From Candidatus Latescibacterota bacterium (GTDB taxonomy: Bacteria; Latescibacterota; UBA2968; UBA8231), in contig OZ242318.1 in the NCBI GenBank assembly GCA_965208105.1, positions 4,672,001-4,736,000 of the forward strand: a stretch of 64,000 bases of DNA, read 5' to 3'. Below, one piece after another: positions 42,646 through 52,465 of the stretch (its first letter is position 1; each line of letters begins with the position of its first letter). A model generated the notes under the pieces. The model was not told where the DNA came from. It worked only from the letters and a program-made list of their open reading frames with translations, and did no database searches. The position numbers and the translations under genes are program-made.

Positions 42646-43053
42646 GGTCAAGTCCTGAGATTTCTGCAAAAGTGATGGCAGCACGAAGCCCCCTTCCTAC
42701 CCGGCCACCGCCCTCCTTTGGGTAGCCGGTTCGATCTTCAACTCCTGGTATAAGAGATCCAGCTGGGCCCTCTCCGTCGCCGTGATCCCGATGCGCTGCC
42801 AGGTACCGGCCGCCCGGATCAGGGTAGCGTGGACGAGCTTGAGACAGCTCTTCTCGTTGAAGAAGCGGGGTATGGTTTTGGTAACCCGTCGCTCTTCCAC
42901 GAAACTGCGTTCAATCAGGTTGGTGGTACGTACGTATTTTCGATGGCGCCAGGGCACGCGCAGGTGGTTGAGAAGGGCCTCCAGATCCTCGCTGAGCACG
43001 GCGCACAGGCTTGGACAATCCTCAGGCAGCTTCGTTGCCCGGGTCCGAACCAA
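42646..43053 (-). mobile_element. IS256-family remnant: transposase C-terminal fragment plus one terminal inverted repeat
   Basis: RTTNLIER..EERR.TK.I..F.NEKSCLKL motif; GGTCAAGTCCTGAGATTTCTGCAAAAGT (42646-42673) resembles IS256 ends; no N-terminal part present. Confidence 0.8.
42697..43053 (-). pseudogene. Truncated IS256 (mutator-type) transposase
   Basis: Only about 110 C-terminal codons of a roughly 400-aa transposase. Confidence 0.8.
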
Positions 43054-43236
43054 GCAGGATCCAGATCACCTTGTTCACTCTAATAATCTCAGAGGCCGGT
43101 GGTTAGCACCCTCGAATGCAGCCCGAATGGATTCATCTCCAACTCTCCGGAGAATTGGGCGAAGCAAGATAAAAGGAAGAAAAGATGATATGAGGTAATG
43201 AGAGGGTGGATGGCCTTCGGTCCCATTGCCTGCTGA

Positions 43237-43252
43237 GGGCACAATTCTTGCT
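43237..43252 (+). promoter_or_regulatory. Sigma54 (-24/-12) promoter upstream of the precursor gene
   Basis: GGGCACAATTCTTGCT versus consensus TGGCACGNNNNTTGCW; exact GG-N10-GC spacing. Confidence 0.65.
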
Positions 43253-43292
43253 GAAAAAGGGAAGCACCTCGTTTCCCCGCTCGGCGGGATCT

Positions 43293-43791
43293 ATCCCCAA
43301 GTGCCTCGGAGGCCTTTCCACTCAACCAAGGAGAGAAAAATGATCCAACTACAGAAGCGAACCCTGCAACCCTACGGACATAAGCTCGGTGTCACGGCAT
43401 ACGGCTTCGAGTTCGATGTGGATGGCTTCGTGGGTGACGCCAAGAAACTGGTAAAGGACCTTGCGAAAGGTAAAATTGAGGTCGGGAACATCAGGACAGG
43501 AGAGTCAAGAACTACATTCACAATCAACGCGGGGATCGGGCGCAGGAGCAGCAGCGATCCGGTGCATGACTATGGCGACAGCAACTGGGTCGAGTACAGC
43601 ATTGGCCCAATGAGCATCACCCATGTCAGCGCCCCCAACAGCGGCGGCAGTGGTAGCAGTGGTAGCAGTTCGCCATCGGGAGGTTATGGTTTCTCACCGA
43701 GCGACTACTACGATCGTTAATGTTTTCCAGGTTCTTCCCGGAATTGTTGCCAGATTGAAATGAACGGAAGGTCTCCGAGGCCACCGGGGAT
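43293..43791 (+). repeat. Imperfect inverted repeat pair (43293-43319 / 43766-43791) enclosing the precursor ORF
   Basis: GCCTCGGAGGCCTT pairs with AAGGTCTCCGAGGC (one G-U); ATCCCC pairs with GGGGAT. Confidence 0.7.
43340..43720 (+). CDS. Putative RiPP/bacteriocin precursor, 126 aa, CLI_3235/PapA-like leader
   Basis: AAGGAG RBS; MIQLQKR...VTAY|G leader pattern; Ser/Gly-rich tail; first gene of the cluster. Confidence 0.7.
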   Translation: MIQLQKRTLQPYGHKLGVTAYGFEFDVDGFVGDAKKLVKDLAKGKIEVGNIRTGESRTTFTINAGIGRRSSSDPVHDYGDSNWVEYSIGPMSITHVSAPNSGGSGSSGSSSPSGGYGFSPSDYYDR

Positions 43792-43834
43792 TCGGTTAAC
43801 ACTCTGCCCATAACCGTCCGGGATCGAGGCAAAT

Positions 43835-44557
43835 ATGCGTAACTCAACCGCCACACCCTGGCCCGCGAGCACGGATATAGGGTTCGTAAGAGGCCTGATC
43901 ATCGCGGCCTTCTTTCTGGTAAGCCTTCCCCTCCTCGAGGTGATCGTTGTCAACTTGGCTGGCACAGGATATATCATCGATACCCTGGAAGGAGCGGCGA
44001 TTATCTTGCCGGTCCATATTTTCAGCCTTTTTATGGTGGGATTCGTCGTGCAGAGGTGGGGAGGTATTCACTTCAAATCCCTGTTCCGCCGCCTTCCTAA
44101 CTTGAGGGAAGGCATAAAATGGGGTTCGGTCGGCGCGCTACTCGGATCAACGATGTTTTTTAAGGCGCTGAATTCCGGGTACCGGTTCGACAATCCGGAG
44201 GCCAACATCATGGTTTTGGTTCTGCTTGTAAAAGTCTCCCTGATCACCCCACTTGTCGAGGAAATCAAATATCGCGCGGTTTTCTACGCCGCCTTGCGCA
44301 AGAAGGGCAGGATCATCGCCTATGCGGTTTCGTCGCTGGTGTTTACCCTCGCCCACGCCCCGTCCTACGGCGATCTGTTCTTGCACGGATCCATGGGTCT
44401 TTCCGGTGGACAGATCGCTGGGCTCCTGCTCGCAGGCCTGGTCTTCGCTCATATCTATGAAACCACCGGCAAGCTGCTGGTCTGTGTCCTGTGCCACGCC
44501 ATGATCAACGGCATGGAGGTAATCGGCTACCTGGCAGGCTATTTGTTCGATGTGTGA
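43835..44557 (+). CDS. CPBP/CAAX (Abi) intramembrane metalloprotease, possible immunity protein
   Basis: PLVEEIKYR (EExxxR), FTLAH, HAMIN motifs; multiple TMs. Confidence 0.88.
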   Translation: MRNSTATPWPASTDIGFVRGLIIAAFFLVSLPLLEVIVVNLAGTGYIIDTLEGAAIILPVHIFSLFMVGFVVQRWGGIHFKSLFRRLPNLREGIKWGSVGALLGSTMFFKALNSGYRFDNPEANIMVLVLLVKVSLITPLVEEIKYRAVFYAALRKKGRIIAYAVSSLVFTLAHAPSYGDLFLHGSMGLSGGQIAGLLLAGLVFAHIYETTGKLLVCVLCHAMINGMEVIGYLAGYLFDV

Positions 44558-44786
44558 AGCTTCCTTATTGTGGGATCCCACAATCTTCGGCGGTATCCTG
44601 TCTCCTCCCTCCAAATTGGGCATCCTCGCCTGACCTCGATTCCGGATCGCTGAGTCAAACCGAGACCCCAGGTCTTACCTAGCGGGATTACCCGACGGGG
44701 ACCAGACCGCGTGAAGTGTCGGGTATAGAATTTGCCGCTTTCTGCTCAACTCCAATCGAATCTACCGGGTGCCCTGGTACGTGTCT

Positions 44787-46502
44787 ATGAACCAAATCCT
44801 GCAGATTGTTCGACTCCTGCGGCCCTACTGGCGCTTCATTGCACAATCTCTGCTGGTAGGAGTCATGCTGACCTTCCTGAGTTTACCGGGGCCATTTATC
44901 ACCAAGCTCCTGATTGACGAAGTTTTCCCTCACAGAGATTACTCCTTGCTCTATTTCGTCCTGATCATGGGTGCGGTTTTCGCGGCGTTCACGGGGTTGA
45001 CCAGCTTCATGAGCGGCTATTTCAGTCAATGCGTAAGTACGAAAATGAGCTTTGATTTCGAGACGGATTTCTACAGCCATATCCAGTCCCTGGATTTCAG
45101 TTTTTTCGACCAGAGGGAGACAGGGGAAATCATGGCCAGGTTCGGAGACATGCAAAGTTCCATATTCAGCATGATTAGGATTGTAAATACCCTGGTAATG
45201 AATTGTCTGCAGTTGATGATATTTCCTCTCATTCTCTTCTACATCAACTGGAAGTTGGCTTTGATAAGTCTGGCAGTACTGCCCTTCGATACCCTCCTGG
45301 TGGCAATCACCAAGAAACATATCCGCAATCTGTCGAAGCGGATTGCCGAGCGTTCTGCCGAGATGTCGGCAAAAACATTCGAATCGCTGTCGGGGATTCG
45401 AACTGTCCAGGCGCTAGGTGTGGAGAGGATCTTTTTCAACAAGATTTTTGAAATCTTCAAGGAAGTGTCGAATCTCCGGCTCAAATTGTCCCTTGTGCAA
45501 AACGGTTCGGGATTTGCCGCGAATCTATTCAAAGCGGCGGGGAGTATGGCCTATGGCTGGTATGGATGGACCCAGATTTTACAGGGAAATTTGTCGCTGG
45601 GAAGCTTCATGGCGTTTTCCGGGTATGTCGGATTTCTCTACGGGCCCATAGAAAACCTGATTGGAATTCTCCCCCTTCTCGAGACAACGAAGGTTCACCT
45701 CAATCGTTTTTTTGAGATCTATAATTTGCGTCCGGCGATTCAGAATCGTCTGAATATGCCCGTTCTGCAACGCGTGCAAGGGGAAATCGAGTTCAGCGAA
45801 GTAAGTTTCTCCTACGATGAGCGCCAAAGGATTCTCCATCGGGTCAACCTGGAAATCCCCCCACGTACCATGATCGCCCTCGTAGGCAGGAGCGGATCCG
45901 GGAAATCCACTCTGGCCAAGCTGATTCCAAGGTTCTACGACCCCGATGAAGGGCAGGTTCGCATAGATGGAAAGGATATCCAGAAATTCCAGCTCAACTC
46001 GCTGCGCCGGCAGGTTGGGTTTTCCATGCAGGGAACCCCCCTTTTCCAGGGGAGTATTCTGGATAACCTGACCTTCGGAAGGAACATTCCAGTGCAGGAC
46101 GTGGAAGATGCGGCTCGATCAGCCTATATCCACGATTTCGTGAATTCCTTGGCGGATGGCTACGATACCCTGGTGGGCGAGCAGGGGGCCAAGTTGTCGG
46201 AAGGACAGAAACAGCGCATCGCTCTTGCCCGTGTTTGGTTGCTTGATGTCCCAATTCTGATACTGGACGAACCCACCGCGGCTCTGGACCTGGAATCAGA
46301 ATTTTTCATACAGGAAGCCCTCAAAAGGGTACGGAAAAATCGAACAGTCGTCATAATCGCACACCGGCTCTCGACCATCCAAAGCGCAGACGAGATAGTT
46401 GTACTGGATGATGGCAGGATATCCGAGAGGGGAACCCACGGGGAGTTGTTGCAAAACGGCGAAGGGTACTCTCAGCTCTTCAGCCGAATGGCAAGTATTT
46501 GA
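44787..46502 (+). CDS. ABC exporter (TMD plus NBD), no C39 peptidase domain
   Basis: 6-TM domain; GRSGSGKST, LSEGQKQR, ILILDEPT, IAHRLST. Confidence 0.92.
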   Translation: MNQILQIVRLLRPYWRFIAQSLLVGVMLTFLSLPGPFITKLLIDEVFPHRDYSLLYFVLIMGAVFAAFTGLTSFMSGYFSQCVSTKMSFDFETDFYSHIQSLDFSFFDQRETGEIMARFGDMQSSIFSMIRIVNTLVMNCLQLMIFPLILFYINWKLALISLAVLPFDTLLVAITKKHIRNLSKRIAERSAEMSAKTFESLSGIRTVQALGVERIFFNKIFEIFKEVSNLRLKLSLVQNGSGFAANLFKAAGSMAYGWYGWTQILQGNLSLGSFMAFSGYVGFLYGPIENLIGILPLLETTKVHLNRFFEIYNLRPAIQNRLNMPVLQRVQGEIEFSEVSFSYDERQRILHRVNLEIPPRTMIALVGRSGSGKSTLAKLIPRFYDPDEGQVRIDGKDIQKFQLNSLRRQVGFSMQGTPLFQGSILDNLTFGRNIPVQDVEDAARSAYIHDFVNSLADGYDTLVGEQGAKLSEGQKQRIALARVWLLDVPILILDEPTAALDLESEFFIQEALKRVRKNRTVVIIAHRLSTIQSADEIVVLDDGRISERGTHGELLQNGEGYSQLFSRMASI

Positions 46503-46538
46503 ACTGAAGGGAGGAAAGAAAAAATCGAAAGAATCAGT

Positions 46539-48536
46539 TTGAGTCGTCTGACTGGCCGCGATGTCAAGGTCGCGATTGTGGACAGCGGCATTGATGCTTC
46601 GCACCCGAAAGTCGGTTTGGTAGCTGGAGGACTGGCGCTGTGGTCCGCCCCGAATGGGGGAACTGCCTCGGGAGGGGATTGGTCGGACTGCACCGGCCAT
46701 GGAACAGCCTGCGCCGGTATTGTCCGCAAGAAAGCTCCGGAATCCGAAATGTACAGCGTCCGCATTTTCGACGAAACCTTGTCGACCGATGGCACATCAC
46801 TAGTGGCTGCTCTGGAATGGACGATTTCAAAAGAAATGGACGTGGTGAATTTGAGCCTGGGAAGCACCGGCCTGAGCCAAAGGGAAGACCTGAGGGCAGT
46901 CTGTCGTCAGGCGGCAAAGGCCGGAATTGTCCTTGTTGCAGCCGAGCACAATGCGGGCAGAGAAAGCTATCCGGCCGTGTTTCCGGAAGTAATAGGAGTC
47001 AGTGGAGGATGGGTTCAGGGGGCCTACGGCTACTACTACCGTTCGGAAGAGGCCATCGAATGCGTGGCCAGGGGCAACCACCAGCGCGTATGCTGGTTGA
47101 ACCGAGGTGAAATCATGATCGAGGGGACGAGCTTCGCCGCAGCCCATATTTCGGGGATTGTATGCTTGATTCGCGAAGCATTACCCGGGGCTACGGTGGA
47201 GAAAGTGCGCGAGGTTCTGCAGGCAAACGCTCTGCCTGAAATTTCCAACCATAGCGCCGGTGTGGGACAATCTTCGCCACCGCCTGCTCAGCGGAAGCTC
47301 GTTCAGGCTTCCCGGTCAGAGGCCAAATCTGCCATCAGGTGGATCCGGAAGGCGGCAATCTATCCATTCAACAAGGAGATGCATGCCCTGGTTCGATATC
47401 GAGACTTGCTCAGCTTTGAACTGGTTGGCGTCGCCGATCCGGTAGGAAAGGGGCTGGTAGGCAAGGACGCCGGGGAAGCCATGGGGATTTCTTCTGCGGG
47501 CATCAGAATTCAGCCGAGGCTCTCCTCTGCCCTTCGGGGGGCCGACACCCTTATTCTCGGCTACGTCGACCAACTCAGCCGCATCGGCAAAAAGGACATG
47601 TTGCGCGAGGCGGTCCGCCTCGCTTTGGATCAAGGCTGCCACGTCTTCAGTTTCGTCTCCCTTCCTCGAGACGTCTACGCGGACCTCCATGATCTCGCGG
47701 CGGGAAAAGGATTGCGCCTCACCTATCCATCCGTCGATTACGAGGAGGTCCGGGATGCCCTGGTCTCCGGTCAGAAATCCAGCCCCGTCGACGTTCCGGT
47801 GGTAGGGGTGTTCGGAACCAGCTCTCAACAGGGAAAATTCACCCTGCAACTGGCCCTGCGCCGCCGCCTCCTGCGCCTGGGATACAAGGTCGGTCAGATT
47901 GGCACCGAACATCACTCAGCACTTTTCGGCATGGATTTCGCATTTCCCATGGGGTATGCTTCACCTCTGGATTTGCCAATCCAGTGGCATGTACCCTATC
48001 TGGACTACAAAATGCGGCAGATATGTGGGCAACGAAGGCCCGACCTCATTCTGGTCGGTTCGCAGTCCGGTACCATCCCCTATGACGTGCATGAGCACGG
48101 GGCTCATTCCATGGCCTCGGTCTCGTTCCTTCTGGGCACCAAGCCCGATGCATGTATATTGGTGGTCAACAGCATCGATGCGGACCGCTACGTTGAGGAC
48201 AGCATGGATGCCATCCGCGCCCTGGCCAAGGCCCCCACTTTGCTTCTGGCCATGAGCGACAAGAAAAAGCATATCATGGCGGCGTACGGACGTAGTTGGG
48301 TTGCGCCGCGCCAGATGAGGGGGGCGGAAATCGCGGCAAAGCTGGGCTACCTGGAAGACAGGTTCGGCTTGCCAGCCATTGAAATCTCCTCCGTTCAGGG
48401 CCAGCGAATAGTTGCTGCGGAGGTCCTTCGGTATTTTGCTTCCTCGAAAAAGGCGGGTTGTAAGCGGGGCCTCACCCGGATTCACCGGCCTCGTTGGAAA
48501 AGAGATGAAACAACCCTAAAGTCAAGGTTTCCTTAA
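46539..48536 (+). CDS. Cytoplasmic S8 subtilase fused to a DUF1611/TIGR04066-like P-loop domain
   Basis: Triad VAIVDSG / GHGTACAG / GTSFAA, no signal peptide; C-terminal VPVVGVFGTSSQQGKFTLQL..GYKVGQIGTE..ILVGSQSG. Confidence 0.8.
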   Translation: MSRLTGRDVKVAIVDSGIDASHPKVGLVAGGLALWSAPNGGTASGGDWSDCTGHGTACAGIVRKKAPESEMYSVRIFDETLSTDGTSLVAALEWTISKEMDVVNLSLGSTGLSQREDLRAVCRQAAKAGIVLVAAEHNAGRESYPAVFPEVIGVSGGWVQGAYGYYYRSEEAIECVARGNHQRVCWLNRGEIMIEGTSFAAAHISGIVCLIREALPGATVEKVREVLQANALPEISNHSAGVGQSSPPPAQRKLVQASRSEAKSAIRWIRKAAIYPFNKEMHALVRYRDLLSFELVGVADPVGKGLVGKDAGEAMGISSAGIRIQPRLSSALRGADTLILGYVDQLSRIGKKDMLREAVRLALDQGCHVFSFVSLPRDVYADLHDLAAGKGLRLTYPSVDYEEVRDALVSGQKSSPVDVPVVGVFGTSSQQGKFTLQLALRRRLLRLGYKVGQIGTEHHSALFGMDFAFPMGYASPLDLPIQWHVPYLDYKMRQICGQRRPDLILVGSQSGTIPYDVHEHGAHSMASVSFLLGTKPDACILVVNSIDADRYVEDSMDAIRALAKAPTLLLAMSDKKKHIMAAYGRSWVAPRQMRGAEIAAKLGYLEDRFGLPAIEISSVQGQRIVAAEVLRYFASSKKAGCKRGLTRIHRPRWKRDETTLKSRFP

Positions 48537-48548
48537 AGGGAGGGGTAA

Positions 48549-48836
48549 ATGGGAAAAGAAGGCACAGAGTATCGCATCAAGCGCACCATCGTCCGTACCC
48601 TGAATCTCGACATCGAGCCCGATGAAATCGGTGACGATGATTTGTTGTTCGGCGGCGACCTCGGTCTGCACTCCATGGCGGCGATGGAAATCATTGTCGG
48701 ACTGGAGGAGGAATTCAGCTTTGAGGTTTCGGACGATGATCTGAGAGTCGAGTTACTGAACAGTGTTCGCTCGATGAGCGAATACATTGAATCAACCCTT
48801 TCAGATTCCTCCGCCATGCGGGTGAAGGACCCTTGA
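48549..48836 (+). CDS. Stand-alone acyl carrier protein
   Basis: GGGAGG RBS; acidic 95 aa; LFGGDLGLHS (Ppant Ser), LEEEF. Confidence 0.85.
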   Translation: MGKEGTEYRIKRTIVRTLNLDIEPDEIGDDDLLFGGDLGLHSMAAMEIIVGLEEEFSFEVSDDDLRVELLNSVRSMSEYIESTLSDSSAMRVKDP

Positions 48837-48839
48837 GCC

Positions 48840-51533
48840 ATGATACCGGATATAAAGCTATTTTACGAGCCTGGATCGAGAGATTGTGCAGAAGACCTGG
48901 CGGTCTCCGTAGCCTCCTGGAAGAGGAGAAAGCACGAGCTGATGTTCGCTGAGTCATGGGGGTTTGGTTTTGACCCACCTGGTTCGGGCGGTGGAGAAAG
49001 AATTGGAGATGGGATCGATCCTGCAATGGGCGACCGGTGGGGATTGCTGGAGCGCCATCACGGAATAAAATGGTCGGTCGGCAAAAACCATTCTGATGAA
49101 GAACTCGCTGCTCTCTTGCAGGGGGAAATTGAAGGAGGTTTTCCGGTCGCATTGAGCCTGAGCGTGGGTGAAACGAGGAAAGAATGCAGCGCCAAGGGCG
49201 ACAGGAGTTCGCCCCTCCCCTATATCCTGGCCGTGGGGTTTGATTACAGTGCCCGGACCCTGTCTTATCTGCGATACAACACCCAATGTCCCGGTGAAGG
49301 AAACGGCGAAATAGAGCATATCTCCCTCGGTGACTTCGAGGATTGGGATGGTGGTTACATGACCGTCCGACTGACGGGAAAGGACAAGTGGCAAGAGGCC
49401 GACGGGGTTGAAGTTATTGAAAGAGCCTTGGCAAGCGTCGGCAACTTCGATGAATGCAGAAGCACCGTTTCAATCCACCAATTTGCCGATGCATTGGATC
49501 GGGGCCTTGATATAGAGGCTGAAATTGCAGGCTGCACCAACTATCACCGGGTTCCATTGTTTTACAATCTGATGCGGGTTGGCCATGGGCGCTTTCAGTT
49601 CTCCAGATTGCTGCGCCTTCTGAGCATCACTGGCCACTTCCCGGAGCTTGGGGAAGCTGCTGGCCGCTTGGAGTCCCTGGGAAGACGGTGGAATCTGGTC
49701 CGCAGCCTGTTGATGAAATTGGGGATGAGGGCGAGCGATGTTCAATTGCCGGGTCGAATCAGCACGAGAGTCAGAGAACTGGCGGCGGCTGAGGAGGAAT
49801 TGGCCTCGGTCCTGCGGGAATTCGGTTTTAGGAAGAGAAGGAACCCCTTCTCGAAAATTCGTAAAAATTCTCTCGTCCCGGAACCATCCTCTTCAGGAAT
49901 TGAAATGTATCCCCGTCCTGCACTGAAGCATCCATATGTGGGCCCTCGGGACGGGAAGGAGCGCCGCCTCGTCCATATCTGGCAGGAAGTCCTTGGCGTC
50001 CGAAAGGTTGGTGTTCACGACGACTTCTTTGAGTTGGGCGGGGACTCCTTGCTGGGGATCCATGTTGTTGCCCTTGTCCGTAAGGCAGGGTTGCAACTGA
50101 CTACCGGACAGCTTTTCGAACGCCGGACAATCGCAGGATTGGCCCAGGTTGAAGGGAAGGGGACCTGGATTTGCGCTGAGCAGGATCTGGTGACAGGTCC
50201 TGTACCCATCACACCCGGTGCGCGCCGGTTCCTGGAGCATATCGGTCCCGGCAGACACCACTACAACGTGTCTGTTCTCCTGGAGACGCCAGACGGCTTC
50301 GACCCCGGACGAATGGACCAGGCCGTGCGCCATGTGGTCGCCCATCACGATGCCCTCCGATTTCGTTATTTCCATGACGGCAGGACGGGATGGCGGCAGT
50401 ACATGGCCGGGCTTGATGGGCCAAATCATTTCACCATTACAGATCTGAGCGGCATTCCCAGGGCGGGGCAAAGTGCCGCAATTGAAGAGGCTGCGGCCGA
50501 AGTACAGGCCAGCCTGAACCTGTCCCGGGGACCCTTATGCCGGGTGACCTTTTTCGATCTTGGGGATCACCGTCGCGGGCGCCTGTTATTTGTCGTACAC
50601 CACATTGCCGTGGATGGGATGTGCGAGCGCTTTCCCCTGGAGGACCTTCTTTTGGTCTACCAGCAGCTTTGCGCAGGCGATGAGGTCCGGATGCCTCCAA
50701 AGACAACCTCATTCAAGCGATGGGCAATTGGTCTGGAGAAATACGCCCGTTCGGAGGCCTTGAAGAAGGAGGCAGATTATTGGCTGAGCTTGCCCTGGGA
50801 TCAGGTGCGTCCCTTTCCCCTGGATAATGCAGAAGGAGTGAACAGCCGAGCCTCTTCATCCTTCATAGAAATTACCATATCCCCAGAAAAGACGCACACC
50901 TTACTGTCAGTTCCCAGGAAGTCGACCACCAGGGTCCACGAGGTGTTGCTGACAGCGCTCGCTCTGGCCCTCTCACGATGGACCGGATCGGATACCGTAT
51001 TGGTAGACCTGATGCATCATGGACGCGAGCCGCTTTTCGACCACATGGACCTGTCTCGCACGGTGGGCAATTTCATCTCCCATGTTCCGGTAGTACTGAA
51101 ACTGGGGAACGCATCCCCTGCTTCACAGGCGGTGGAAATGGTCAAAGAGCAACTTCGCAAAATTCCCAGGGGAGGCATCGGGTATGGTTTGCTGCGGTAT
51201 AGGTGTGGGGATACTGAGGAAAACGAAAAATTGCGAAGCTGCCCAAAGGCCGAGATCAGCTTCAACTGCCGGATTCACGGGGCTCGGACATTGCCGGCTA
51301 ATCAGGGTCATCTGGCCGCTGGATCTTTTCAACCAGCCATGGAATCCTGCGGTCCCCCTATCGCCCAGGATGCAATCAGGGGCCATCTGATCGGATTCAG
51401 AGCCGACATCATTAACGGCCGGGCAAACCTCGGCTTCACCTACAGCGCGGCGTTGCAAAGGGGATCTACGGTCGAAGCTCTGACCCATGGCTGTATGGAG
51501 GAGTTGGACTCGCTCCTCGGCCGTCTTCATTGA
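48840..51533 (+). CDS. BtrH_N-like domain, PCP and epimerization-type condensation domain fusion (no A domain)
   Basis: DCAEDL..ELMFAESWGFGF BtrH_N-like; DDFFELGGDSL PCP; HHIAVDG, PKTTSF, HGRE..LSRTVG, VKEQLRKIPRGGIGYGLLRY E-domain motifs. Confidence 0.8.
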   Translation: MIPDIKLFYEPGSRDCAEDLAVSVASWKRRKHELMFAESWGFGFDPPGSGGGERIGDGIDPAMGDRWGLLERHHGIKWSVGKNHSDEELAALLQGEIEGGFPVALSLSVGETRKECSAKGDRSSPLPYILAVGFDYSARTLSYLRYNTQCPGEGNGEIEHISLGDFEDWDGGYMTVRLTGKDKWQEADGVEVIERALASVGNFDECRSTVSIHQFADALDRGLDIEAEIAGCTNYHRVPLFYNLMRVGHGRFQFSRLLRLLSITGHFPELGEAAGRLESLGRRWNLVRSLLMKLGMRASDVQLPGRISTRVRELAAAEEELASVLREFGFRKRRNPFSKIRKNSLVPEPSSSGIEMYPRPALKHPYVGPRDGKERRLVHIWQEVLGVRKVGVHDDFFELGGDSLLGIHVVALVRKAGLQLTTGQLFERRTIAGLAQVEGKGTWICAEQDLVTGPVPITPGARRFLEHIGPGRHHYNVSVLLETPDGFDPGRMDQAVRHVVAHHDALRFRYFHDGRTGWRQYMAGLDGPNHFTITDLSGIPRAGQSAAIEEAAAEVQASLNLSRGPLCRVTFFDLGDHRRGRLLFVVHHIAVDGMCERFPLEDLLLVYQQLCAGDEVRMPPKTTSFKRWAIGLEKYARSEALKKEADYWLSLPWDQVRPFPLDNAEGVNSRASSSFIEITISPEKTHTLLSVPRKSTTRVHEVLLTALALALSRWTGSDTVLVDLMHHGREPLFDHMDLSRTVGNFISHVPVVLKLGNASPASQAVEMVKEQLRKIPRGGIGYGLLRYRCGDTEENEKLRSCPKAEISFNCRIHGARTLPANQGHLAAGSFQPAMESCGPPIAQDAIRGHLIGFRADIINGRANLGFTYSAALQRGSTVEALTHGCMEELDSLLGRLH

Positions 51534-51608: not shown

Positions 51609-52262
51609 CTACCGCATCGGCACGAAGCGCACGGCGATGAGCTCGCGGCGCTCCACCCCCTGAGGCCCCCTCTTGACCCTCACCAGGCGCTGCTGGTCGG
51701 CCCCCACCGGCATGATCAGCCGTGAGCCTGAAGCGAGCTGCTCGATCAGCGCCGGGGGGATCTCCTCCACGGCGGCCGAGCCGATGATTCCGTCGAAAGG
51801 CGCCTCCTCCTCCCAGCCCTGGGCGCCGTCCCCGGTCCGCAGGCGGATATTGCCATAGCCCAGATCCCTCAGGGTGTGCTGCGCCTTTTCGGCCAGTTCG
51901 GGGAAGAACTCGATGGAGAAAACCTGGTCCACCATCTCGGCGAGGAGGGCGGTCAGATAGCCGCAGCCGGTGCCGATCTCCAGGACCCGGCCGGGCCGCT
52001 CCACTGCGAGTTGCTGCAGCATGTAGGCGACCACGTAGGGCTGGGAGATGGTCTGCCCGCAGCCGATGGGAAGGGGATGGTCGTGGTAGGCCCGGGATCG
52101 CTCGGTAGGCGGTACGAAGAGGTGGCGCGGCACCCGGCGGAAGGCGTCCATGACCGCTGCCTGGTGGATGCCGCGTCCCCTGAGCTGGAATCGCACCATG
52201 CGCTGGCGTTGAGAGGCGAACTCTTCCGCCGATGAATCGCCGTCGGAAAAGAGAGCAAGCAT
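51609..52262 (-). CDS. pcm: Protein-L-isoaspartate O-methyltransferase
   Basis: VPRHLFVP, QTISQPY, VLEIGTGCGY, GDGAQGWEEEAPFD, VRFVPM. Confidence 0.92.
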   Translation of the reverse strand: MLALFSDGDSSAEEFASQRQRMVRFQLRGRGIHQAAVMDAFRRVPRHLFVPPTERSRAYHDHPLPIGCGQTISQPYVVAYMLQQLAVERPGRVLEIGTGCGYLTALLAEMVDQVFSIEFFPELAEKAQHTLRDLGYGNIRLRTGDGAQGWEEEAPFDGIIGSAAVEEIPPALIEQLASGSRLIMPVGADQQRLVRVKRGPQGVERRELIAVRFVPMR

Positions 52263-52465
52263 GGCAATTGGCGGGGTGGGTTGGATCGGCAAAGTCCGCT
52301 CGAGGAAGGGCAATCTCCCTTGTGCGGCCTGGGGCCGACTGGGGGCTCATCCCATCGAGGAGCATGCCTGTGAATGGAAAGGAAGGTATCGGTGGATCCT
52401 CTACCAAAGTCTACGGTCTGGCATCCTCCGTGGCAAGCACCCGGCACCGGATCGCGGGAATCACC

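Follow-up and report, generated by a model that had tools for sequence, protein, structure and literature searches.

The six co-oriented genes that lie on the + strand at 43340-51533 of the window (the whole 64,000-nucleotide stretch of DNA analysed here) form an intact operon which is under selection and which is one of a large RiPP-like family, and, judged from sequence, this operon appears to be a rare variant of a widespread peptide-maturation system to which NRPS parts have been joined. All six genes were found where the original prediction had placed them, and its statement that they encode no radical SAM, LanM, YcaO, adenylation or KS domain was borne out by Pfam and NCBIfam searches of the six proteins, which also revealed no ATP-grasp or building-block enzyme in the cluster. 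The reading preferred here is that the operon, as a selected member of this RiPP-like family, carries out leader removal, thiotemplated transfer of an acyl or aminoacyl unit onto the precursor, and export, and we consider the chances of this reading to be evenly balanced. The size of the S8-DUF1611/ACP family, the finding that the absence of a radical SAM enzyme is its norm, and the leader motif held in common with the CLI_3235 precursor are new in this work.

The same cluster was found in 4 of the 61 relatives searched, across 2 genera, with all frames open in the 4 genomes, and in the comparison of two sister-genus genomes each of the 7 genes has a dN/dS within 0.10-0.26, indicating purifying selection throughout. 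The recurrence in 4 genomes and 2 genera, taken together with these ratios, implies that the arrangement is more than a product of chance. Versions of the cluster in four metagenome runs show about 98% identity, and the indels among these variants are in frame or compensated. It might be supposed that the operon has lost its function and is a mobile island in decay, given the IS256 transposase fragment at 42697-43053, a G+C content below that of the flanks, a transposase-like HTH ORF within the copy of the cluster in genome G001, and the patchy distribution of the cluster, but the open frames, the low dN/dS values and the nature of the metagenome indels all oppose this idea, as does the fact that the substitutions at catalytic positions described below are the same across the clade rather than random, and it is therefore highly improbable.

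The invariant core of the family consists of an S8-DUF1611 fusion followed by an ACP, usually with a peptidase-less ABC exporter, an HlyD-type adaptor, a CPBP protein and a homologue of the BtrH/CtaG-fold transacylases. Relatives of the fusion make up at least 551 protein clusters (both domains are present in 117 of the 120 listed). Of 168 host-phylum genomes, 87 encode the S8-DUF1611 fusion; the rare PCP-E fusion is encoded in 6. Among 16 loci of the host phylum, which were chosen manually and annotated using in-house HMMs, the ACP lies directly 3' of the S8-DUF1611 gene in 14, an ABC exporter gene that is closely related and full-length is present in 14, an HlyD-like gene in 11, and a BtrH-like protein, usually stand-alone, in 9. 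A radical-SAM candidate is present in only 2 of these loci. The description of the cluster as a maturation cassette without its thioether enzyme holds, but this state, found in 14 of the 16, is the norm in the phylum and not the exception. A radical-SAM version of the system is also present in the host genome, at a separate locus (L132).

The CLI_3235/CcpM cassette to which the operon had been likened was defined by genomics, and includes a TIGR04065 precursor, a TIGR04068 radical SAM, TIGR04066 and the ACP-related TIGR04069. The canonical clostridial locus comprises TIGR04065, CcpM, TIGR04066 and TIGR04069, and in a cluster table for P. polymyxa (PMC10731318) these four are joined by an ABC transporter and a subtilisin-like protease. 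The likeness is supported by the order of the genes, in which a small carrier comes next after a DUF1611/TIGR04066-like protein, by the N-terminal motif of the precursor, by the presence of a subtilisin and an ABC exporter in the neighbourhood, and by the 28-31% identity, over the full length, of the host fusion to clostridial fusions that adjoin radical SAM and ACP genes. The operon differs from the cassette in its lack of a radical SAM and of a Cys-rich precursor, in the fusion of S8 with DUF1611, and in the additional BtrH-like-PCP-E protein. Its TIGR04066 match (6.1e-35, residues 271-560) reaches 120.9 bits against a curated cut-off of 200, whereas true clostridial members score 220-497 bits; TIGR04069 is absent from the 14 NCBIfam families matched by the ACP, and the small protein matches no NCBIfam family, TIGR04065 included, so that the leader motif alone is held in common with that precursor. 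Neither a radical SAM/SPASM maturase in the six proteins nor a conserved Cys in the alignment of the small-protein family was found, and the operon is thus not a member of the ranthipeptides or sactipeptides. The claim that a BtrH_N protein accompanies such cassettes was not confirmed in the 3 clostridial loci scanned, but agrees with the 9 host-phylum loci noted above.

The precursor-like small protein (126 aa, 43340-43720) is encoded by an ORF whose longest frame extends from 43226 to 43720 (164 aa, with a TTG start), but the likely start is the ATG at 43340, which has AAGGAG a few bases upstream. The protein has no Pfam or NCBIfam match and belongs to no known family; it has only 13 relatives among 5.8 billion proteins, is present in 4 of 4 clusters of family f1, and has a dN/dS of 0.10 in the sister-genus pair. 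Its AF2 model has a pLDDT of 45.8, its C-terminal part is Ser/Gly-rich, and the C-termini of the family are not conserved in the alignment. The most conserved stretch of the family is the leader-like N-terminus, residues 1-21 (43340-43402), with the motif M..L.K[KRP]....Y......[IVL].[AL][YC]. When used as a regular expression on the six-frame translations of 25 cluster loci (about 1.0 M residues), this motif matched 18 small same-strand ORFs, and 8 of these ORFs were outside the set used to derive it. Control loci (2.78 M residues) gave no match, and the host genome (9.69 M residues) gave 4, one of which is the 126-aa ORF itself. The TIGR04065 precursor of locus L101 has the same motif, and the small proteins beside the S8-DUF1611/ACP core therefore have in common with the clostridial CLI_3235 precursors what is, on the evidence of sequence, a leader motif. 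The N-terminal Gly that leader removal was predicted to expose is not conserved, since the residue that follows the AY motif is Ser in a same-genus relative. The core that would be left after leader removal has about 105 residues, which is long for a RiPP and counts against the preferred reading.

The candidate leader peptidase is the cytoplasmic subtilisin domain (46539-47348) with which the S8-DUF1611/TIGR04066-like fusion protein (46539-48536) directly begins. This domain matches Peptidase_S8 (PF00082, residues 6-243, 1.5e-26) with 93.8 bits against a cut-off of 21.8, its Asp-His-Ser triad is present, and D15, H54, S198 and N138 are invariant across 6 aligned fusions. Its nearest NCBIfam model is QhpE (NF049966), for which it scores 146 bits, below the cut-off of 165. 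QhpE is described as cutting the 28-residue QhpC leader in the cytoplasm, before export by an ABC transporter (PMC7876137), and the S8 domain would in the same way recognise the leader of the 126-aa protein and remove it in the cytoplasm. The maturation of the QHNDH gamma subunit (QhpC, QhpD, QhpE, QhpF) is also similar to the present system in its small, mostly unstructured leader-bearing protein and in peptidase-less ABC export in a diderm; it differs in that the QhpD radical SAM, QhpG and the dehydrogenase subunits have no counterpart here, and in that carrier proteins, which are present here, are absent from qhp. That the present host is also a diderm, as was originally assumed, is weakly suggested by an RlpA match above cut-off and by the HlyD adaptors of sister clusters, although a heptosyltransferase-like match falls below cut-off. 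The ABC exporter (44769-46502), which would secrete the product, consists of ABC_membrane and ABC_tran alone (PF00664, residues 28-293; PF00005, residues 356-504); its TMD starts at residue 28, no N-terminal C39 peptidase is among the 8 Pfam families matched, and it is thus not a PCAT. The CPBP/Rce1-like intramembrane protease homologue (43835-44557; PF02517, 1.1e-18, 67.7 bits), for which the NCBIfam CPBP matches are all sub-threshold, has homologues in the other 3 clusters and in 5 of the 16 sampled loci, and is a candidate immunity or trimming protein that might provide self-protection or a final trim.

The second part of the fusion is a DUF1611/TIGR04066-like Rossmann and P-loop domain (47349-48536; PF07755, residues 414-618, 6.3e-13), which scores 49 bits against a gathering cut-off of 25 and contains the P-loop GTSSQQGKFT (47814-47843), of which the residues GT..QGKFT are invariant in the 6 fusions. 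This domain would charge the ACP with an acyl or aminoacyl unit, a role which is assigned to it because it is the sole nucleotide-binding candidate besides the exporter. A single relative is found in the PDB, 2g0t, itself a "conserved hypothetical protein", and we know of no loading activity for DUF1611, which counts against the preferred reading. Two carriers are available to such a relay: the stand-alone ACP (48549-48836; PF00550, 2.9e-11, 43.9 bits), whose predicted attachment Ser, in GLHS, lies opposite a Ser in 7 of the 8 partner ACPs aligned, and the PCP domain of the fused protein (residues 376-436, 49965-50147; PF00550, 1.4e-12, 48.1 bits), which has the GGDSL motif and whose GGDS is found in 14 of 14 fused-clade proteins. 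The presence of the carrier Ser in both counts in favour of the preferred reading, as does that of one PPTase gene in the host genome.

The carriers could instead receive the precursor itself, which a thioester bond would attach to the ACP or the PCP through capture of the S8 acyl-enzyme or through activation of a carboxylate by the P-loop domain, with the E-type domain then epimerising or cyclising the C-terminal residue ahead of release. Such a scheme would account for why no adenylation domain is needed and for the fusion of S8 and P-loop domains with the ACP next to it (14 of 16 sampled loci), and it is consistent with the action of the E-type fold on carrier-bound acyl groups and with the ability of subtilisin-like macrocyclases, such as PatG, to resolve acyl-enzymes with non-water nucleophiles. 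However, such loading of a ribosomal peptide on a carrier has no known precedent, the S8 acyl-enzyme would hold the leader half and not the core, and the C-termini of the small proteins are not conserved, which together make the scheme unlikely.

The last gene (897 aa, 48840-51533) encodes a BtrH/CtaG-fold, PP-binding and Condensation fusion. Its N-terminal papain-like domain (residues 1-365, 48840-49934) matches no Pfam family at E<=10, so the BtrH_N (PF14399) call of the original prediction lacks a direct match, but relatives and predicted fold agree with it: the domain has 392 relatives, of which 10 were scanned and 8 contained BtrH_N (4 above cut-off), and a Foldseek search with the AF2 model (pLDDT 85.2) retrieved AziU3 (4.7e-9), CtaG (8e-7) and CcbD (3e-6), the matches overall (E 5e-9 to 3e-5, TM 0.5-0.6) indicating a bipartite papain-like and helical fold. 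BtrH, AsbE and CtaG are reported to transfer acyl groups from carrier thioesters to amines via an acyl-Cys intermediate, and MllDE to be a fusion of carrier and transacylase (PMC12865890). The domain resembles BtrH, AsbE, CtaG, CcbD and MllDE in its bipartite fold, N-terminal Cys, carrier partners and carrier fusion; it differs from the papain-like transacylases in its low identity (about 13-15%) to the solved structures, in its fusion to an E-type domain, in its location within a ribosomal-precursor operon, and in the replacement of His and Asp. The Cys is found in 148 of 155 alignment rows, and Cys16 is kept here and in 14 of 14 fused-clade members, at identities down to about 30%. The triad is nevertheless incomplete: across the clade of about 900 aa the His has given way to P, K, F, R or S (Pro here), the Asp column does not contain Asp here, and the same pattern, with Cys kept but His and Asp replaced, holds for 12 of 15 proteins of 600-1000 aa. 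According to the same report, CtaG H128A still makes the acyl-Cys thioester, from which it follows that a domain without the His could still be loaded, but a His-less CtaG variant traps the intermediate, which counts against the preferred reading (PMC12865890).

The C-terminal epimerisation-type condensation-fold domain (50223-51518; PF00668, residues 462-809, 2e-62) has as its 10 best PDB matches proteins that all contain E domains (PvdL, BacC, GrsA, TycA, TycB; 1e-57 to 7e-73), in agreement with the prediction that a PCP-E unit has been added, although its TIGR01720 match is below cut-off. As in the PCP-E units of GrsA, TycA and PvdL, a GGDSL carrier is followed by an E-type fold with HHxxxDG (HHIAVDG, intact); unlike in those units, there is no adenylation or downstream condensation domain in the cluster, and the Glu of EGHGRE is replaced by Met, MHHGRE aligning with LEGHGRE of PvdL. 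This first Glu is present in 0 of 13 alignable fused-clade sequences. In favour of the preferred reading, the E892A variant of GrsA is reported to retain about one sixth of its epimerase activity (PMC8905534). The missing catalytic His and Asp and the missing E-domain Glu both count against the preferred reading, and their loss across the clade would be expected if the fused protein served for scaffolding or docking without catalysis, much as the C39-like domains of some exporters do (PCAT1 and HlyB are weak fold matches of the BtrH-like domain), and if the product were simply a leader-cleaved, exported bacteriocin-like protein. This explanation is improbable given that all 14 clade members retain Cys16, the Ser of the PCP and, in HHxxxD, the second His, that the carrier Ser of the ACP is kept, and that dN/dS in the sister-genus pair is 0.22-0.34 across the three parts of the protein (0.34 for the BtrH-like part).

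Under the preferred reading, thiol-thioester exchange would carry the unit from the ACP to the fused PCP by way of Cys16 in the BtrH-like domain; the E-type domain might epimerise it there, and it would finally form an amide with an amine of the processed precursor, most probably the one at the new N-terminus. In the most specific form of the proposal, a non-ribosomal unit would cap a ribosomal protein with no adenylation domain involved: the DUF1611 P-loop domain would be a new kind of carrier-loading enzyme, the relay would run from ACP to Cys16 to PCP, and the E-type domain would epimerise the unit before its attachment to the N-terminus just exposed by the fused subtilisin. This form is fairly unlikely. 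If true, it would constitute thiotemplated (D-)aminoacylation or acylation of a RiPP, and it would show what chemistry the widespread S8-DUF1611/ACP family as a whole performs. Goadvionins and lipolanthines are lipidated RiPPs made with acyl-ACP donors, and the idea of a carrier-delivered acyl group on a ribosomal peptide is common to them and the present scheme, but the GNAT acyltransferases, PKS/FAS genes and lanthionine-type cores of their pathways are all absent here.

The same genes could also make a small thiotemplated metabolite (compare closthioamide and the butirosin side chain), with the small protein not an acyl acceptor but a separate bacteriocin or regulator. The characterised papain-like transacylases covered by one report all belong to non-ribosomal pathways (PMC12865890), and PCP-E is itself an NRPS unit. 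The fused protein also has homologues in a different family of the phylum, where they adjoin canonical NRPS genes (C-A and C-A-PCP-TE, in G398) or an ACP and a CN-hydrolase (in G410), with no leader-motif ORF nearby, and are unlinked from the S8-DUF1611 gene of the same genome, all of which counts against the preferred reading. We nonetheless give the metabolite a low probability, since adenylation, ATP-grasp, KS and building-block enzymes are missing from the cluster, the only Condensation match in the whole host genome is that of this cluster, each of the four family f1 clusters encodes the small protein alongside the fused one, and leader-motif ORFs adjoin S8-DUF1611, ACP and BtrH-like genes in many loci. 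The host genome has 7 AMP-binding matches, all outside the window.

The six co-oriented + strand genes form a cluster which is real and well described. The first encodes a 126-aa protein with no family match in Pfam or NCBIfam (43340-43720), whose ATG lies a few bases 3' of AAGGAG, and it is followed by genes for a CPBP/Rce1-like protein (43835-44557; PF02517), an ABC exporter without a C39 domain (44769-46502), a 665-aa fusion of an S8 domain and DUF1611 (46539-48536) which scores 146 bits with QhpE and 120.9 bits with TIGR04066, both under the cut-off, an ACP (48549-48836; PF00550), and an 897-aa protein (48840-51533) which carries a PCP at residues 376-436 and a condensation-fold domain at 462-809. 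Gaps of 36, 12 and 3 bases separate the last four genes, and promoter and terminator scans of the cluster produced no signal exceeding shuffled controls. The cluster is bordered by the housekeeping genes pyrK, pyrD and rlpA at one end and by pcm and rplC at the opposite end, and its G+C content is 0.51-0.57, compared to 0.58-0.67 in the adjacent 2-kb bins. There is no adenylation domain in the cluster, and the host genome contains one PPTase gene, of the Sfp type (G000:C1:4070428-4070748), and no Condensation domain beyond the cluster's own. A 118-aa fragment from the C-terminal end of an IS256/Mutator-family transposase lies directly upstream (42697-43053, - strand). The protein-L-isoaspartate methyltransferase at 51609-52313 (- strand) was rejected as a cluster member, because its score exceeds the housekeeping Pcm cut-off and because the sister-genus clusters have no similar-sized ORF after them.

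The original prediction that these genes represent a known maturation cassette is right, and the cluster is a new variant of a system that has been defined by genomics but is biochemically unstudied. In the canonical locus of Clostridia a TIGR04065 precursor is accompanied by the radical SAM protein CcpM, TIGR04066 and TIGR04069; TIGR04066 is found above its cut-off in 7 of 300 genomes. Clostridia also possess S8-DUF1611 fusions near a radical SAM gene and a small carrier, and these fusions share 28-31% identity with the window's protein. The fusion occurs in at least 551 protein clusters, with both domains present in 117 of the 120 listed; the names of some refer to Spirochaetales, Latescibacteria and Gemmatimonadetes MAGs. 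Among 168 genomes of the host phylum 87 have the fusion, the highest count being 7 matches in a genome. A literature search on DUF1611, DgcN and CcpM returned nothing relevant; the DUF1611 family includes acetyltransferases of the DgcN type. The pair formed by TIGR04066 and the ACP-related protein has for years been a named, unexplained "peptide maturation system", whose roles the literature searched only guesses at (PMC10731318). The window places this pair, fused to a subtilisin, among diderm environmental bacteria, where it is common and mostly lacks a radical SAM enzyme.

The composition of the wider family was surveyed in 16 loci, hand-picked mostly from complete genomes and annotated with HMMs built from the sequences of this analysis. 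An ACP gene directly downstream of S8-DUF1611 and a full-length ABC exporter are each present in 14 of these loci, an HlyD-like gene in 11, a CPBP protein in 5, and a BtrH-like protein of 339-370 aa in 9 (8 detected by HMM, with E-values from 2e-22 to 1e-5, and 1 by its BLAST family), while none of the 16 contains a PCP-E fusion. A radical-SAM candidate appears in only 2 of them, so that the missing radical SAM, which had been considered unusual, has to be regarded as the common condition in this sample. One of these two loci, L132 (~523-534 kb, within G000:C1:516400-534300, outside the window), is a second, radical-SAM version in the host genome itself, with a radical SAM protein of 493 aa, an ACP of 105 aa, a 597-aa ABC exporter, a BtrH-like protein of 352 aa that stands alone, a 631-aa S8-DUF1611 protein with 29% identity to that of the window, and a Cys-rich 52-aa precursor which bears the leader motif. 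The stand-alone BtrH-like partners found in most sampled loci (BLAST family F4, e.g. L125:10499-11518) keep the His, but at the nucleophile position the Cys appears to be missing, with a Ser adjacent, although their N-terminal part aligns poorly and this reading is uncertain. Four loci (L118-L121, in G060, G047, G045 and G010) show a larger conserved cluster type around S8-DUF1611 and the ACP, with recurring uncharacterised families of ~140, 183, 233, 376 and 408 aa; by eye, the 183-aa protein resembles a membrane-anchored thioredoxin-fold protein.

The small proteins of the clusters share 29-62% identity, with the first ~50 residues best conserved, and the conserved N-terminal Gly that had been proposed is to be corrected. 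Relatives of the small protein number only 13 among 5.8 billion proteins, an ESM Atlas lookup gave no lead, the AF2 model obtained from a shallow alignment has a pLDDT of 45.8, which does not support a fold assignment, and the complex prediction with S8-DUF1611 returned no verdict, with a score of 0.00. The small ORFs that separate the ABC gene from the S8-DUF1611 gene are hypervariable, yet alike at the start, and the N-terminus of the window's small protein (MIQLQKRTLQPYGHKLGVTAY) can be set beside that of the clostridial TIGR04065 precursor (MKKLGKKLHSYQGTIEAYA). When searched for with a regular expression, this leader gave 19 matches in ~1.0 M six-frame residues from 25 cluster loci, compared to 0 in 2.78 M from 80 unrelated loci, whose higher G+C may have lowered the background, and 4 in the 9.69 M residues of the whole host genome, one of them the 126-aa ORF. 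Of the cluster-locus matches 1 is false and the other 18 fall in small ORFs that share the strand of the cluster; 10 of the 18 served to write the pattern and 8 are new. These matches connect the 126-aa protein with the precursor class and locate its recognised part at the N-terminus. The family's leader motif is recognisable and finds its substrates. Tandem arrays of 3 or 4 leader-motif ORFs of 66-75 aa with hydrophobic, Gly/Ala-rich cores are present at L129:1405-2547 and L130:1610-2610, upstream of S8-DUF1611 proteins with long N-terminal extensions (843 and 1080 aa).

The N-terminal domain of the 897-aa protein had been called directly as BtrH_N, a call which must be amended: residues 1-365 have no Pfam match at a threshold as loose as E<=10, though BtrH_N is found in 8 of the 10 relatives scanned, some of which also have DUF4872 or Peptidase_C39_2. 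A search made without a word index yielded 392 relatives: proteins of ~320 aa that stand alone, others of ~530 aa, and domains at the C-terminus of NRPS/PKS megasynthases. The AF2 model of the domain (pLDDT 85.2) resembles AziU3, CtaG and CcbD (E 5e-9 to 3e-5), and its structural matches include the CcbD-PCP complex; the domain is thus predicted to be of the papain-like, carrier-dependent transacylase class, members of which work through an acyl-Cys intermediate with a Cys-His-Asp triad (PMC12865890). In the 155-row alignment of the domain Cys16 is kept in 148 rows, and the catalytic His in 51/61 rows from relatives of 300-400 aa, 60/64 from those of 400-600 aa, 11/11 from those over 1000 aa, and 3/15 from those of 600-1000 aa. 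All members of the ~900-aa fused clade have P, K, F, R or S at the His position, and the Asp is also gone.

The C-terminal domain is of the epimerisation type, and the 10 best PDB sequences all have E domains. Its HHIAVDG motif is intact, LMHHGRE aligns to LEGHGRE, and the first Glu of the EGHGRE motif is present in 0 of 13 alignable fused-clade sequences; each of Cys16, GGDS and the second His is retained in 14/14 fused-clade proteins. These substitutions speak for a rival reading of the fused protein as a non-catalytic scaffold, and the retained residues speak against it. Judged by published mutants, the domains are altered yet not evidently dead, because formation of the acyl-Cys thioester persists in CtaG H128A (PMC12865890) and GrsA E892A is only ~six-fold less active, H753A being dead (PMC8905534).

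The fused homologues of G398 and G410, genomes from a different family within the phylum, have NRPS genes nearby or an ACP and a CN-hydrolase next to them, with neither a leader-motif ORF nor a relative of the small protein at these loci, an arrangement that speaks for the rival reading of the cluster as a small-molecule pathway. The S8-DUF1611 genes of these genomes are located elsewhere, with an ABC exporter at both loci, an ACP in G410 only, and other partners. Given this separation, the PCP-E protein looks like an NRPS-type accessory recruited into the RiPP-like cluster in the host's family (f1), where it appears to occupy the place usually held by the stand-alone BtrH-like protein. In G398 (L114:11503-18160, - strand) the fused homologue has next to it a two-gene NRPS, one gene for C-A and the other for C-A-PCP-TE plus a second carrier, as well as genes for an ABC exporter and an ankyrin-repeat protein; a DDE transposase lies between these and the homologue.

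The cluster components, their conservation and the leader motif are established, and a capping mechanism may be proposed on this basis. The S8 domain would cut the leader in the cytoplasm, by analogy with QhpE, QhpC and QhpF (PMC7876137), the P-loop domain would load the ACP, a thioester relay via Cys16 would pass the group onto the PCP, epimerisation would possibly follow, an amide would be formed on the processed precursor, and the ABC transporter would export the product. A peptidyl-carrier relay is a rival to thiotemplated capping; the latter, if true, would be a new kind of RiPP/NRPS hybrid logic and would also supply a new enzyme tool. Because of its compactness, the selection acting on it and its link between the pair and NRPS parts, the six-gene cluster is a practical entry point to the role of carrier proteins in ribosomal peptide maturation.

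Searches for the fused protein's N-terminal domain were positive in 4 of 61 related genomes and in 6 of 168 from the phylum. This patchy distribution is a point for the unlikely rival reading of a decaying remnant, and the signs of selection speak against it. The cluster occupies the same site in G001, a relative of the same genus, and in two genomes of another genus (G021 and G008) it comprises HlyD, ABC, a 119-aa small protein, CPBP, S8-DUF1611, the ACP and the fused protein. Between these two, dN/dS ranges from 0.10 for the small protein up to 0.26 for the fused protein, whose three parts give 0.34, 0.23 and 0.22. A contig search with the full 897-aa protein found only generic NRPS PCP-E loci matching ~250-896, mostly from ~335 onward, and a metagenome contig search with the N-domain alignment found 3 distant loci. 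Four metagenome runs contain the window's cluster at ~98% identity, with indels that are in frame, compensated or intergenic, and coding changes in the window's own lineage number 11 nonsynonymous and 16 synonymous, a count drawn from 40 of 274 variant sites, 27 of them coding. The G001 cluster is syntenic except that a 256-aa HTH_32/HTH_23 transposase-like ORF (L085:8770-9540, + strand) separates the CPBP gene from the ABC gene. The ~98% copies of 43226-51533 come from runs X5, X6, X8 and X9, labelled as sponge or marine metagenomes from several studies, and in these copies the small gene has a pair of frameshifts that compensate each other and a 3-base insertion in its Ser/Gly-rich part.
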